Assembly (NCBI RefSeq): GCF_045037415.1
Contig: NZ_CP173438.1
DNA from: Escherichia coli
GTDB lineage: Bacteria; Pseudomonadota; Gammaproteobacteria; Enterobacterales; Enterobacteriaceae
Direction: 5' to 3' (one strand)
Length of the DNA: 64,000 bases
Shown: positions 3,101 through 51,812 of the stretch, one piece after another
Layout of the letters: every line of letters begins with the position of its first letter
How positions within the stretch are numbered: the first letter of the stretch is position 1
Notes under the pieces: generated by a model
What the model was told of the DNA's origin: nothing
Databases searched by the model: none
Seen by the model: the letters and a program-made list of their open reading frames with translations, nothing else
Made by a program: the position numbers and the translations under genes

Positions 3101-4113
3101 TTATTAAACGTTGTCGTGAACTGGCGTTGCGAGCGCCCGCCAGAGTAGTTTTTCCGGATGCGTTAGATCAACGTGTGCTGAAAGCTGCGCAATATTTACA
3201 TCAACAAGGTCTGGCAACGCCCATTCTGGTCGCCAATCCGTTTGAACTTCGTCAGTTTGCGCTCAGTCACGGCGTGGCGATGGACGGGCTACAGGTGATA
3301 GATCCGCATGGCAACCTCGCAATGCGGGAAGAATTTGCTCATCGCTGGCTGGCCCGCGCGGGCGAAAAAACGCCGCCGGATGCGCTGGAAAAACTTACCG
3401 ATCCGCTGATGTTCGCCGCTGCAATGGTCAGCGCCGGTAAAGCGGATGTCTGTATCGCGGGCAACCTCTCTTCCACGGCGAATGTGCTGCGTGCCGGATT
3501 ACGCATTATCGGCTTGCAGCCAGGCTGTAAAACGCTCTCATCCATTTTCCTGATGCTGCCACAGTACAGCGGTCCGGCGTTGGGTTTTGCCGATTGCAGC
3601 GTGGTGCCACAGCCGACGGCGGCACAACTGGCGGATATCGCGCTTGCCAGCGCCGAAACCTGGCGCGCCATCACCGGAGAAGAACCGCGCGTGGCGATGC
3701 TGTCGTTTTCCAGCAACGGTAGTGCCCGTCACCCCTGTGTTGCCAACGTCCAGCAGGCGACAGAAATCGTCCGTGAGCGCGCACCAAAGCTGGTTGTCGA
3801 TGGCGAGTTGCAGTTTGACGCCGCCTTCGTGCCGGAAGTGGCGGCGCAAAAAGCGCCTGCCAGCCCGTTACAGGGCAAAGCTAATGTGATGGTTTTTCCG
3901 TCGCTGGAAGCCGGAAATATTGGCTACAAAATCGCACAACGACTTGGCGGATATCGTGCCGTCGGGCCATTGATACAAGGACTTGCCGCGCCGATGCACG
4001 ATCTCTCTCGTGGTTGTAGCGTGCAGGAAATTATCGAACTGGCGCTGGTGGCAGCTGTGCCGCGTCAGACAGAAGTGAACCGCGAAAGCAGTTTACAAAC
4101 ACTGGTTGAATGA
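3097..4113 (+). CDS. eutD: EutD, phosphotransacetylase
   Basis: 338 aa PTA-family sequence; overlaps eutT stop. Confidence 0.9.
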
Positions 4114-4445: not shown

Positions 4446-4454
4446 TCACCCTGT

Positions 4455-4490
4455 GTGACGTCGATTCGGGCGTCACGCTCTCTCCTTTTT
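4455..4490 (+). terminator. stem-loop (gtgacg..cgtcac) followed by T-rich tract between eutM and eutN; possible intra-operon attenuator
   Basis: Inverted repeat read directly; T-run about 10 nt downstream, so only a weak intrinsic-terminator-like structure. Confidence 0.25.
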
Positions 4491-7101: not shown

Positions 7102-8278
7102 ATTGCAGACCGCGCTCTTTCAGGCGTTCGATACCCTGAATCTGCAACGGGTAAAAACATTTAGCGTTCCACCGGTGACGCTTTGCGGTCCGGGCGCGGT
7201 GAGCAGTTGTGGGCAGCAAGCGCAAACGCGTGGGTTGAAACATCTGTTCGTGATGGCAGACAGCTTTTTGCATCAGGCAGGGATGACCGCTGGGCTGACG
7301 CGTAGCCTGGCCGTTAAAGGTATCGCCATGACGCTCTGGCCATGTCCGGTGGGCGAACCGTGCATCACCGACGTGTGTGCAGCCGTGGCGCAGTTGCGTG
7401 AATCAGGTTGTGACGGGGTGATCGCGTTTGGCGGCGGCTCGGTGCTGGATGCGGCGAAAGCCGTGGCGTTGCTGGTGACGAACCCGGATAGCACGCTGGC
7501 AGAAATGTCAGAAACCAGCGTTCTGCAACCGCGCCTGCCGTTGATTGCCATTCCAACGACCGCCGGAACCGGCTCTGAAACCACCAACGTGACGGTGATT
7601 ATCGATGCGGTAAGCGGGCGCAAACAGGTGTTAGCCCATGCCTCGCTGATGCCGGATGTCGCGATTCTCGACGCTGTGCTAACCGAAGGCGTGCCGTCGC
7701 ATGTCACGGCGATGACTGGCATTGATGCGTTAACCCATGCCATTGAAGCGTACAGCGCGCTGAACGCTACACCGTTTACCGACAGCCTGGCGATTGGCGC
7801 CATTGCGATGATTGGTCAATCGCTGCCGAAAGCGGTGGGCTACGGTCACGACCTTGTCGCCCGCGAGAGCATGTTGCTGGCTTCATGTATGGCGGGAATG
7901 GCGTTTTCCAGCGCCGGGCTTGGGTTATGCCACGCGATGGCGCATCAGCCAGGGGCGGCGCTGCATATTCCGCACGGTCTGGCGAACGCCATGTTGCTGC
8001 CAACGGTGATGGAATTTAACCGGATGGTTTGTCGTGATCGGTTTAGTCAGATTGGTCGGGCGCTGCGAACTAAAAAATCCGACGATCGTGACGCTATTAA
8101 TGCGGTAAGTGAGCTGATAGCGGAAGTTGGGATCAACAAGCGGCTGGCTGATGTGGGTGCAACAACCGGGCATTACGGTGCATGGGCGCAGGCCGCGCAG
8201 GAAGATATTTGTCTGCGCAGTAACCCGCGTACCGCCAGCCTCGAGCAGATTGTCGGCCTGTACGCAGCGGCGCAATAA
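7091..8278 (+). CDS. eutG: EutG, iron-containing alcohol dehydrogenase
   Basis: 395 aa from internal ATG (MQNELQ...), Fe-ADH family; 11-bp overlap with eutJ. Confidence 0.9.
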   Translation: MQNELQTALFQAFDTLNLQRVKTFSVPPVTLCGPGAVSSCGQQAQTRGLKHLFVMADSFLHQAGMTAGLTRSLAVKGIAMTLWPCPVGEPCITDVCAAVAQLRESGCDGVIAFGGGSVLDAAKAVALLVTNPDSTLAEMSETSVLQPRLPLIAIPTTAGTGSETTNVTVIIDAVSGRKQVLAHASLMPDVAILDAVLTEGVPSHVTAMTGIDALTHAIEAYSALNATPFTDSLAIGAIAMIGQSLPKAVGYGHDLVARESMLLASCMAGMAFSSAGLGLCHAMAHQPGAALHIPHGLANAMLLPTVMEFNRMVCRDRFSQIGRALRTKKSDDRDAINAVSELIAEVGINKRLADVGATTGHYGAWAQAAQEDICLRSNPRTASLEQIVGLYAAAQ

Positions 8279-25746: not shown

Positions 25747-26621
25747 TGGCGGAAGTGACACAATTGAAGCGTTATGACGCGCGCCCGATTAACTGGGGCA
25801 AATGGTTTCTGATTGGCATCGGGATGCTGGTATCGGCGTTCATCCTGCTGGTGCCGATGATTTATATCTTCGTACAGGCGTTCAGCAAAGGACTGATGCC
25901 GGTGTTACAAAATCTGGCCGATCCGGACATGCTGCACGCCATCTGGCTGACGGTGATGATCGCGCTGATTGCCGTACCGGTAAACCTGGTGTTCGGCATT
26001 CTGCTGGCCTGGCTGGTGACGCGCTTTAACTTCCCCGGACGCCAGCTATTGCTGACGCTGCTGGACATTCCGTTTGCCGTGTCGCCGGTGGTTGCTGGTC
26101 TGGTGTATCTGCTGTTCTACGGCTCTAACGGCCCGCTGGGCGGCTGGCTGGATGAACATAATCTGCAAATTATGTTCTCCTGGCCGGGTATGGTGCTGGT
26201 CACCATCTTCGTGACGTGTCCGTTTGTGGTGCGCGAACTGGTACCGGTAATGTTAAGTCAGGGCAGCCAGGAAGACGAAGCGGCGATTTTACTTGGCGCG
26301 TCCGGCTGGCAGATGTTCCGTCGCGTCACGCTGCCGAACATCCGCTGGGCGCTGCTTTACGGCGTGGTGCTGACCAACGCCCGCGCGATTGGCGAGTTTG
26401 GCGCGGTATCGGTGGTTTCCGGCTCGATTCGTGGCGAAACCCTGTCGCTGCCGTTACAGATTGAATTGCTGGAGCAGGACTACAACACCGTCGGCTCCTT
26501 TACCGCCGCCGCGTTGTTGACGCTGATGGCGATTATCACCCTGTTTTTAAAGAGTATGTTGCAGTGGCGCCTGGAAAATCAGGAAAAACGCGCGCAGCAG
26601 GAGGAACATCATGAGCATTGA
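25746..26621 (+). CDS. cysW: sulfate/thiosulfate ABC transporter permease
   Basis: 291 aa; start overlaps cysU stop. Confidence 0.9.
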
Positions 26622-48088: not shown

Positions 48089-48164
<76 letters not shown>

Positions 48165-48171
48165 AATTTCA

Positions 48172-48199
48172 AACCCTCGCTGCAAAGCGGGGGTTTTTT
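48172..48199 (+). terminator. intrinsic terminator after the tRNA-Ala pair
   Basis: ccctcgc..gcggggg imperfect hairpin followed by TTTTTT. Confidence 0.5.
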
Positions 48200-48370
48200 G
48201 TCTCTGCCTTTTGCCGCTTTTGTAATACAGTCTACATCCTGGCAGTGCCGTGTGGTGAATGCATCACTGACTGCAAAAACAGCAACAGGCTGGCCCCTGT
48301 TTGCTTCGCGATGCGAATAAACTTATTATTTGTGTGCCTGAAAACCCCGATCAGTGAGAGTAGTGTACTC

Positions 48371-50560
48371 ATGTTTGTGGAGCATAACCTGATAAAAAAT
48401 ATCAAGATATTCACACTAGCGTTTACGCTCACCGTGGTACTTATTCAGCTATCCCGTTTAATTTCGCCACTTGCTGTTATCCATTCCAATTATATCTTTC
48501 TGGCGTGGATGCCACTGTGCGTAATGCTGTCAATCTTGTTTATCTTTGGCTGGCGTGGTGTCGTTCCCATTTTATGTGGGATGTTTTGCACCAATCTGTG
48601 GAACCTTCATCTCACTTTTTTACAGACCGCCGTCATGATCGGCAGCCAGGCGTTTGCAGTCCTGTGTGCCTGTGCAATATTACGCTGGCAATTGGGGACG
48701 CGTTGGCGTTATGGATTGACCAGCCGATACGTCTGGCAACGTCTGTTCTGGCTTGGTTTGGTGGCGCCGATTGGCATCAAATGCAGCATGTATCTTGTGG
48801 GAAATTTCTTTGATTTTCCGCTAAAGATATCTACCTTTTTCGGCGATGCGGATGCCATTTTCACGGTCGTTGATTTGCTAAGCCTTTTCACCGCAGTGCT
48901 GATTTACAACATGCTTTTTTACTATCTCACCCGCATGATTGTAAGTCCCCACTTTGCACAGATATTGTGGCGTAGGGATATCGCTCCGTCGTTGAGCAAA
49001 GAGAAACGCGCATTTACCTTAAGCTGGCTGGCAGCTCTTAGCGTGCTGCTACTTCTGATGTGCACACCGTATGAAAATGACTTTATTGCCGGTTACTTGG
49101 TACCTGTTTTCTTTATCATCTTTACCCTCGGTGTCGGTAAGCTTCGCTATCCGTTTTTAAATCTCACCTGGGCTGTTTCAACGCTTTGCCTGCTGAATTA
49201 CAACCAGAACTTTTTGCAAGGGGTACTAACCGAATATTCGCTGGCATTTATTCTCGCAGTACTGATTTCCTTTAGTGTTTGTCTGCTCTATATGGTGCGT
49301 ATTTATCATCGTAGTGAATGGCTTAACCGCCGCTGGCATTTGCAGGCGCTGACCGATCCGTTAACGCTCCTACCCAACTTTCGTGCGTTGGAACAAGCAC
49401 CGGAGCAAGAGGCGGGCAAGAGTTTTTGCTGCCTGCGCATTGATAATCTTGAGTTTATGAGTCGTCATTACGGCTTAATGATGCGCGTTCACTGTATCCG
49501 CTCAATTTACCGTACGTTGCTGCCGTTGATGCAGGAAAACGAAAAGTTGTATCAATTGCCGGGTAGTGAACTGCTGTTAGTGCTGAGCGGGCCGGAAACG
49601 GAAGGGCGACTCCAGCATATGGTTAACATCCTGAATAGTCGGCAAATTCACTGGAACAATACCGGGCTGGATATGGGCTATGGTGCTGCCTGGGGGCATT
49701 TTGATGGAAATCAGGAAACCCTGCAACCCTTGTTGGGGCAGTTAAGCTGGCTGGCAGAGCAATCCTGCGCACATCATCATGTGCTGGCGCTGGATAGCAG
49801 AGAGGAGATGGTTTCCGGGCAAACCACTAAACAGGTGCTATTGCTGAATACCATTCGCACGGCGTTAGATCAGGGTGATTTGCTGCTCTACGCCCAGCCA
49901 ATTCGCAACAAAGAGGGTGAAGGTTATGATGAGATCCTCGCGCGACTGAAGTATGACGGCGGCATTATGACCCCGGATAAGTTTCTGCCCCTTATTGCTC
50001 AGTTTAACCTTAGCGCGCGTTTTGATTTGCAAGTGCTGGAATCCTTGTTGAAGTGGCTGGCAACACACCCTTGCGACAAAAAAGGTCCACGATTTTCAGT
50101 CAATTTAATGCCGCTCACGCTGCTGCAAAAGAATATTGCCGGGCGGATTATTCGTCTGTTTAAGCGTTATTACATCTCCCCGCAGGCGGTCATTCTTGAG
50201 ATCACCGAGGAGCAGGCGTTTTCTAACGCAGAAAGCAGCATGTACAACATCGAGCAGCTGCATAAGTTTGGTTTCCGGATTGCGATTGATGACTTTGGCA
50301 CCGGATATGCCAACTACGAACGGTTAAAGCGTTTGCAGGCTGATATCATCAAAATTGATGGCGTCTTTGTGAAAGATATCGTCACGAACACGCTGGATGC
50401 GATGATTGTGAGATCAATTACCGATCTGGCGAAAGCGAAGTCATTGAGTGTGGTCGCGGAGTTTGTCGAGACGCAACAGCAGCAGGCGCTATTGCATAAG
50501 CTCGGGGTGCAATATCTGCAAGGGTATTTGATTGGTCGCCCGCAGCCATTAGCCGATTAA
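48371..50560 (+). CDS. pdeA: c-di-GMP phosphodiesterase PdeA (YfeA): MASE-type membrane domain, degenerate GGDEF, EAL
   Basis: 729 aa from internal ATG (MFVEHNLIKN...); EAL motifs in C-terminal third; the ORF-track N-terminal extension (TTG at 48116) runs through tRNA-Ala and is rejected. Confidence 0.85.
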   Translation: MFVEHNLIKNIKIFTLAFTLTVVLIQLSRLISPLAVIHSNYIFLAWMPLCVMLSILFIFGWRGVVPILCGMFCTNLWNLHLTFLQTAVMIGSQAFAVLCACAILRWQLGTRWRYGLTSRYVWQRLFWLGLVAPIGIKCSMYLVGNFFDFPLKISTFFGDADAIFTVVDLLSLFTAVLIYNMLFYYLTRMIVSPHFAQILWRRDIAPSLSKEKRAFTLSWLAALSVLLLLMCTPYENDFIAGYLVPVFFIIFTLGVGKLRYPFLNLTWAVSTLCLLNYNQNFLQGVLTEYSLAFILAVLISFSVCLLYMVRIYHRSEWLNRRWHLQALTDPLTLLPNFRALEQAPEQEAGKSFCCLRIDNLEFMSRHYGLMMRVHCIRSIYRTLLPLMQENEKLYQLPGSELLLVLSGPETEGRLQHMVNILNSRQIHWNNTGLDMGYGAAWGHFDGNQETLQPLLGQLSWLAEQSCAHHHVLALDSREEMVSGQTTKQVLLLNTIRTALDQGDLLLYAQPIRNKEGEGYDEILARLKYDGGIMTPDKFLPLIAQFNLSARFDLQVLESLLKWLATHPCDKKGPRFSVNLMPLTLLQKNIAGRIIRLFKRYYISPQAVILEITEEQAFSNAESSMYNIEQLHKFGFRIAIDDFGTGYANYERLKRLQADIIKIDGVFVKDIVTNTLDAMIVRSITDLAKAKSLSVVAEFVETQQQQALLHKLGVQYLQGYLIGRPQPLAD

Positions 50561-50566
50561 CAGGCG

Positions 50567-50600
50567 TAAAAAAGCCGGGGAATTATCCCCGGCTTTTTTA
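50567..50600. terminator. bidirectional intrinsic terminator between convergent pdeA and nupC
   Basis: gccgggg aattat ccccggc hairpin flanked by A6 and T6. Confidence 0.8.
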
Positions 50601-50609
50601 TGTATGGTC

Positions 50610-51812
50610 TTACAGCACCAGTGCTGCGATTGACGCAGACAGCACACTCACCAGGGTAGAGCCGTAAACCAGTTTCAGACCGAAGCGAGAAACCACGTTA
50701 CCTTGCTCTTCATTCAGGCCTTTAACCGCACCCGCGATAATCCCGATTGAAGAGAAGTTAGCGAAGGAAACCAGGAACACAGAGATGATGCCTTCCGCAC
50801 GCGGAGAGAGCGTGGAAGCAATTTTCTGCAGATCCATCATCGCAACGAATTCGTTGGAAACCAGTTTGGTCGCCATGATACTGCCCACTTGCAGTGCTTC
50901 ACTGGAAGGAACACCCATCACCCATGCAATCGGATAGAAGATGTAACCCAGGATGCCCTGGAAGGAGATGCTGTAGCCAAACCAGCCAGTCACGGTGGCA
51001 AACAGTGCGTTCAGCGCGGCGATCAGGGCGATAAAGCCGATCAGCATCGCCGCAACGATAATGGCAACCTTGAAACCTGCCAGAATGTATTCACCCAGCA
51101 TTTCGAAGAAGCTCTGACCTTCGTGCAGGTTGGACATCTGAATATTTTCTTCACTGGCATCAACACGGTAAGGGTTGATCAGCGACAGCACGATAAAGGT
51201 GCTGAACATGTTCAGTACCAGCGCCGCAACGACGTATTTCGGCTCCAGCATGGTCATGTATGCACCAACGATGGACATCGACACGGTGGACATCGCCGTT
51301 GCTGCCATGGTGTACATACGATTGCGGGAGATTTTGCCGAGGATATCTTTATAGGCAATAAAGTTTTCAGACTGACCCAGAATCAGGGAGCTGACGGCGT
51401 TAAAGGATTCCAGTTTGCCCATGCCGTTGACTTTGGAGAGCAGGAAACCAATTGCGCGGATAATCACCGGCAACACGCGAATGTGCTGGAGAATACCGAT
51501 CAGTGCAGAGATAAAGACGATTGGGCACAGCACTTTCAGGAAGAAGAATGCCAGGCCTTGATCATTCATGCTACCAAAGACGAAGTTAGTCCCTTCGTTG
51601 GCAAAACCGAGCAGTTTTTCGAACATTTCGGAGAAGCCTTTCACGAAGCCCAGACCAACGTCGGAGTTCAGGAAGAACCACGCCAGTAACACTTCGATAA
51701 CAAGCAGTTGAATAACATAACGGATACGAATTTTTTTGCGGTCGCTGCTTACCAGCAGTGCGAGAATCGCAACAACGGCAAGTGCCAGTACAAAATGAAG
51801 GACGCGGTCCAT
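50610..51812 (-). CDS. nupC: nucleoside:H+ symporter NupC
   Basis: 400 aa from internal ATG ([13 protein letters not shown]...); ORF-track start is an upstream GTG. Confidence 0.9.

Follow-up and report, generated by a model that had tools for sequence, protein, structure and literature searches.

A probable bidirectional terminator between convergent pdeA and nupC in Escherichia coli and its apparent recurrent use as an IS186 target

The DNA analysed in this work (the window) is a 64-kb stretch of the Escherichia coli contig NZ_CP173438.1, in which pdeA (yfeA; 48371-50560, + strand) and nupC (50610-51812, - strand) converge. pdeA was placed from a list of open reading frames (ORFs) and the RefSeq annotation of identical DNA, and encodes a MASE1/EAL cyclic-di-GMP phosphodiesterase of 729 aa with 98% identity to MG1655 b2395 and Pfam matches to MASE1 (8e-64), EAL (3e-59) and, below threshold, GGDEF. 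nupC was placed from the ORF list and encodes a nucleoside:H+ symporter that is the same as MG1655 b2393 at 400/400 aa (100% identity) and carries the nucleoside transporter domains Nucleos_tra2_C, Nucleos_tra2_N and Gate (Pfam). The mechanically called pdeA ORF begins at a TTG at 48116 and so extends the gene by 255 nt at its 5' end relative to the annotated start at 48371, which agrees with the annotated 729-aa protein. Since the extension (48116-48370) contains a terminator-like hairpin (48171-48196, + strand) and relatives carry two tRNA-Ala genes just upstream of pdeA, it is almost certainly non-coding. The TAA stop codon of pdeA (50558-50560, + strand) and the stop codon of nupC (50610-50612, - strand) leave a gap of exactly 49 bp (50561-50609), as the original prediction had stated for this convergent pair, and a gap of the same length was found in eight other empty-site loci, including that of Escherichia sp. 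E1V33.

The gap consists, in order, of CAGGCGT, AAAAAA, GCCGGGG, AATTAT, CCCCGGC, TTTTTT and ATGTATGGTC. Its centre is a symmetric, intrinsic-terminator-like hairpin (50568-50599), recognised from the sequence and from RNA folds on both strands and made up of an A6 tract (50568-50573), the arm GCCGGGG (50574-50580), the loop AATTAT (50581-50586), the arm CCCCGGC (50587-50593) and a T6 tract (50594-50599). The RNA of each strand thus carries a 7-bp GC stem followed by six U residues (50594-50599 on the + strand, the complement of 50568-50573 on the - strand), with a loop of 6 nt, or of 4 nt with the A-U pair closed. The stem begins 13 nt past the pdeA stop codon and 16 nt past the nupC stop codon. 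Two variants of the hairpin were seen in other strains: the first, G50574A, leaves an A-C mismatch in place of the stem's outermost G-C pair and is frequent among the K-12-like, HS-like and other strains sampled; the second, a T-to-G change in the loop at window position 50583 (AATGAT), is found in HUSEC2011-like strains.

The hairpin was assessed by folding rather than by pattern scan, because a simple promoter and terminator scan listed sites no more numerous overall than in shuffled sequence and reported this hairpin on the - strand only, despite its symmetry. The minimum free energy was -31.9 kcal/mol (z -5.8) on the + strand and -32.2 kcal/mol (z -5.7) on the - strand, none of 200 shuffles (0/200) folded as well as the hairpin, and a tighter stretch gave z scores of -7.1 and -6.5. 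An Rfam search of the sequence returned no match at or above the gathering score; the four weak matches obtained (21-30 bits against thresholds of 45-50) were all positioned over the hairpin. The original prediction of a single bidirectional hairpin terminator therefore stands as regards one symmetric hairpin that folds far better than shuffles on both strands, and its anatomy and folding point to termination of transcription in both directions. Acting as a symmetric Rho-independent terminator, the element would let the RNA of either strand end in a strong hairpin and a U-run; pdeA transcripts should then end about 40 nt past their stop codon and nupC transcripts about 45 nt past theirs, and the two would overlap only across the hairpin. 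With other bidirectional Rho-independent terminators between convergent genes, as predicted by TransTermHP (PMC1852404) and as described by Ju et al. 2019 (cited in bioRxiv 10.1101/2022.10.23.513370), it shares an A-tract, a GC hairpin and a T-tract set between two stop codons. Nothing in this arrangement is unusual, and its sole peculiarity is that the stem spells the target of IS186.

The published IS186 target is 5'-GGGG(N6/N7)CCCC-3' (PMC5009759; PMC6925257), and the GGGG(N6)CCCC form of this motif is present, unoccupied, as GGGGAATTATCCCC at 50577-50590; the stem core GGGG-AATTAT-CCCC is also the sequence preferred by the IS186 transposase. Within it lies a single copy of the unit that is duplicated in occupied loci, the 12-bp GGGAATTATCCC (50578-50589), which is GGGAATTATCCCC minus its last C and was defined from the junctions of those loci. 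The motif GGGG(N6/N7)CCCC has one match in the 64-kb window against a chance expectation of 1.16, and its count is therefore uninformative by itself. The terminal inverted repeat of IS186, ATAAGCGCTAACTTAAGGGTTG, was absent from the entire 64-kb window with up to three mismatches allowed; GGGAATTATCCC occurs once and the palindrome is intact, in agreement with the earlier statement that the gap holds no IS186.

In the K-12 reference (NC_000913.3), "insertion sequence:IS186C" is annotated at 2514273..2515617, with insL3 (b2394), between nupC (b2393) and pdeA (b2395). Read in the direction of pdeA, the MG1655 junctions pass from AACCGGGGAATTATCCC into ATAAGCGCTAACTT at one end and from AAGTTAGCGCTTAT into GGGAATTATCCCCGGCTTTTTT at the other. 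IS186C splits the hairpin and is flanked on both sides by GGGAATTATCCC, of which the window has a single copy; the outermost G/C bases could equally be counted as IS186 termini, as the RefSeq feature does. The occupied gap measures 1398 bp, that is, 49 + 1337 + 12, and the K-12 flank differs from the window at 2 of 150 positions before the insertion point (50554 C/T, 50574 G/A). Locus and hairpin are thus the same in both, and they differ in that the window is free of IS186 and keeps its palindrome whole. Annotation and junctions together bear out the statement in the original prediction that MG1655 carries an IS186 copy (insL) between these genes. Where the site is occupied, the 1337-bp element has entered the hairpin, duplicated GGGAATTATCCC and set the two arms 1.35 kb apart, which should abolish the terminator for both pdeA and nupC and allow read-through. 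Shuffled sequences fold as well as the RNAs that cross the two K-12 junctions (z +0.34 and -0.85), a result consistent with such a loss of the terminator for both genes.

For the distribution of the insertion, 5,424 complete E. coli genomes with a match to the locus were classified. The gap was uninterrupted in about 4,450-4,460 of these (~82%), whereas IS186 was present at the pdeA junction in the K-12 orientation in 471-474 genomes and in the opposite orientation in 464-467, and about 20 genomes showed other states of the site. Overall, the site was occupied in about 940 genomes (~17% of sequenced E. coli), a count that is strongly shaped by shared descent and by oversampling of laboratory strains, so that genomes do not equal independent events. 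IS186 was found anywhere in 2,212 genomes, at 7,730 chromosomal places, which means that a copy lies at this site in roughly four in ten of the genomes that bear IS186. BL21(DE3) appears to be a strain that bears IS186 and has this site empty. The K-12-orientation class is made up mostly of laboratory K-12 derivatives (several hundred) and also includes isolates from cattle, chicken meat, water and patients; the opposite-orientation class includes E. coli HS, O104:H4 HUSEC2011, ETEC and many clinical isolates. Identity to the window of at least 99% over 1049 bp was found in 613 genomes.

Sixteen occupied loci (MG1655, M217 and 14 more) were examined, and a scripted comparison over pdeA plus nupC (3,393 nt) took in 12 occupied loci and 8 that were empty. 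The insertion point was identical in 16/16. The element was 1337 bp long in 15 of the 16 (11/12 of the scripted set), the exception being ETEC1732, with 1336 bp and a frameshifted transposase. The 12-bp duplication was likewise present in 15/16 (11/12 of the scripted set); the exception here, strain H8, carries an additional G and an additional A at its junction, which may represent an assembly error or a slightly different duplication. Counting independent insertions by numbers of genomes was dropped, because several hundred of the K-12-orientation genomes are laboratory derivatives. Independent insertions were instead judged at the level of sequence, from flank haplotypes and from variants within the duplication.

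By this approach, closely similar flanks were found in different states of the site. MG1655 (K-12 orientation) and ETEC1732 (opposite orientation) have 0 SNPs between them in the flanks; GF4 (K-12 orientation), HS (opposite) and ECCWS199 (empty) are 2 SNPs apart; and ws5-3 (K-12 orientation), HUSEC2011 (opposite) and strain 38 (empty) are 1-2 SNPs apart. MDR_56, H8 and GPEC403-625 are also occupied, on haplotypes 38-84 SNPs from the others. Four strains have the loop variant GGGAATGATCCC in each of the two copies of the duplication; the variant is therefore older than the insertion, and it is found with the element in either orientation. Both the loop change and G50574A are still targeted by IS186. 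On the haplotype of the window itself, a chimeric query that joined the window flank to an IS186 end matched six genomes at 100% identity. O25b:H4-ST131 strain 5506, which matches the window at 3393/3393 nt across pdeA plus nupC, has the element in the opposite orientation, as does EcPF7; TUM1857, with flanks near-identical to those of the window, is occupied in the K-12 orientation. Target sites with the T loop and with the G loop, and likewise the ST131-type haplotype of the window, have thus been hit in both orientations. These flanks and duplications suggest that the site has been hit by at least four to six separate insertions, a number to be read with the caveat that recombination could carry an occupied allele between lineages. 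As judged from sequence comparison, the terminator is a recurrent natural hot spot of IS186, and the insertion is not specific to K-12 and is found in many lineages.

Three further loci were noted in the course of the survey. Strain BS-01 (L041) resembled a case of degraded IS186; the assembly is evidently error-rich, and it was set aside. In E. coli 11899A_LBHALD (L042, 3205-5675), the IS186 at this site is cut about 150 bp in, leaving one terminal repeat and 72 bp of the transposase gene, and is joined to an rhs/DUF6531 pseudogene, an arrangement suggestive of the loss of nupC from this position through a rearrangement associated with IS186. In E. coli ST2747 (NZ_CP007394.1; L003, ~3400-3760), nupC is missing and mntH lies directly after pdeA, which has a changed 3' end (2214 bp versus 2190); the deletion begins near the hairpin.

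The locus of Escherichia sp. E1V33, a distinct species of the genus, is likewise empty, with a 49-bp gap that contains GCCGGGGAATTATCCCCGGC; it conserves the hairpin core and its position, while its pdeA is only 89% identical. The empty site is therefore the ancestral state by parsimony, given that both this outgroup and about 82% of the E. coli genomes are uninterrupted. The same reasoning favours the view of the original prediction that the window represents the pre-insertion state, although a precise revertant would look alike: precise excision of IS186 is documented at lon (PMC3861542), and "never occupied" and "reverted" therefore read the same from sequence alone.

A longer allele of the gap was also found. 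In E. whittamii (L027, 9250-9444) the gap is 227 bp and contains two copies of the hairpin around an insert with two REP-like units, and 18 E. coli genomes likewise have two hairpin copies around a REP-like insert, with 91 bp added (for example MFDS1019527, L040, 810-925). The duplicated hairpin of this REP-variant allele (~20 bp) is reminiscent of a long target duplication; deletion between the hairpin repeats could instead have given rise to the 49-bp allele. Six REP-variant records, five of them genomes and one a plasmid record, lose the match precisely at the IS186 insertion point in the second hairpin copy. In one of them, E200086 (L060, 1810-1830 and 3160-3180), IS186 lies in the second hairpin copy (GCCGGGG...CCCCGGC) with the usual duplication, and the first copy, with GCAGGG in its left arm, is empty; the REP-variant allele thus offers a natural single-base internal control for the GGGG requirement of IS186. 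The plasmid record (NZ_CP098226.1, 50,485 bp, E. coli Z0117EC0005) carries, at 26197-26322, the 3' end of pdeA and the REP-variant gap with the break at the IS186 point. This segment duplicates the chromosomal locus of the same strain, and it could be a plasmid-captured chromosomal segment or an assembly artefact.

Taken together, the gap very probably holds an ordinary bidirectional intrinsic terminator that doubles as an IS186 target, and the window its intact, unoccupied, ancestral allele. A different account of the hairpin, that it is not a classical intrinsic terminator and that transcription is ended by polymerase collision at a pause element or by Rho, with the palindrome incidental or a stabiliser of mRNA 3' ends, appears quite improbable. 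Polymerase collisions, and not canonical signals, have indeed been held responsible for one class of bidirectional terminator at convergent gene pairs of E. coli (bioRxiv 10.1101/2022.10.23.513370), but that class is described in the same work as unlike intrinsic terminators, whereas the full canonical anatomy (7-bp GC stem, short loop and six U immediately 3') is present here on both strands, and the hairpin core and its position are kept in Escherichia sp. E1V33, whose pdeA has diverged to 89% identity. We give almost no credence to the idea that the palindrome belongs to a dispersed repeat family, whether REP/BIME-like or a miniature mobile element, and is not a gene-specific terminator. 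The doubled hairpin around a REP-like insert in E. whittamii and in the 18 E. coli genomes ties it to repeat-element activity, but the REP sequence there is the insert and not the hairpin, and GGGG(N6/7)CCCC is single in the window. A scan of 100,044 species genomes (298 Gb) for exact matches to the 18-nt core CCGGGGAATTATCCCCGG returned 36 loci, and these included only two Escherichia representative genomes, in which the core was found at this locus only; other Escherichia species did not match the exact 18-mer, and the remaining 34 of the 36 matches fell in unrelated taxa, about the number expected by chance for 18 nt.

As to the history of the site, IS186 may have been present in the lineage of the window and been excised precisely, restoring the 49-bp gap. 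IS186 at the lon promoter is called "highly unstable" and undergoes precise excision (PMC3861542), and the genomes with flanks identical or near-identical to those of the window that are occupied in one orientation or the other indicate that the state of the site changes within the clade. Such a reversion is nonetheless highly improbable for the window: the 613 genomes at 99% identity or more stand against six that matched the window-flank and IS186 junction at 100% identity; across 520 mutation-accumulation lines excision was seen just once, and that event was not of IS186 (PMC5009759); and a revertant is unparsimonious given that the outgroup species is empty.

The site resembles the IS186 hot spots that have been described previously. 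Lee et al. 2016 counted 19 + 35 = 54 IS186 motif sites in the K-12 genome, observed that IS186 inserts in either orientation at one site and at some sites repeatedly, and identified fimA and menC as hot spots (PMC5009759); the lon promoter is a further hot spot, for which SaiSree et al. 2001 is cited. The gap has in common with lon, fimA and menC an exact match to the motif with a 6-nt core and the occurrence of both orientations at one position. Its target duplication comprises the core and flanking G and C bases, and a "+12 bp" duplication is likewise given for IS186 at lon (PMC3861542). Laboratory cultures served to define the earlier hot spots, which are situated within genes or a promoter, where insertion alters the phenotype, whereas the pdeA-nupC site lies in a terminator between two gene ends and is a standing polymorphism of natural isolates. 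That the K-12 element is annotated, that the IS186 target rule is published and that bidirectional terminators are textbook matter is already known biology. Within the literature searched, no paper was found that links IS186 with nupC, yfeA or pdeA, and a recurrent natural hot spot at this terminator may thus be unrecorded, yet predictable from the published target rule.

A more far-reaching reading, that this terminator is the principal natural "safe harbour" for IS186 in E. coli, beyond being one of some 54 motif sites, and that its occupancy could be under selection, is speculative and seems unlikely on present evidence. The site holds about 12% of the chromosomal IS186 copies in complete genomes (~940 of 7730 places), and under the same unlikely reading its state (empty, forward or reverse) would change within individual clones, such as the ST131 and ST10-like lineages. 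Were this true, loss of the terminator could alter the 3' ends or the expression of pdeA, which acts in c-di-GMP turnover, and of nupC, which acts in nucleoside uptake, and the site would bear on the question left by Lee et al. 2016 of whether selection retains some IS186 target sites.

As far as the window itself goes, the terminator is an ordinary one and the allele is the common form of an insertion polymorphism already known from K-12. For E. coli more broadly, the site is a clean natural confirmation of a target rule for IS186 that was derived in the laboratory, and its occupancy and orientation, which vary within clones, make it a possible fast-evolving typing marker and not a stable phylogenetic character. 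K-12 represents the minority state at this locus, and its nupC and pdeA would be without the terminator that they natively share, a point to bear in mind when K-12 transcript maps are carried over to other strains.
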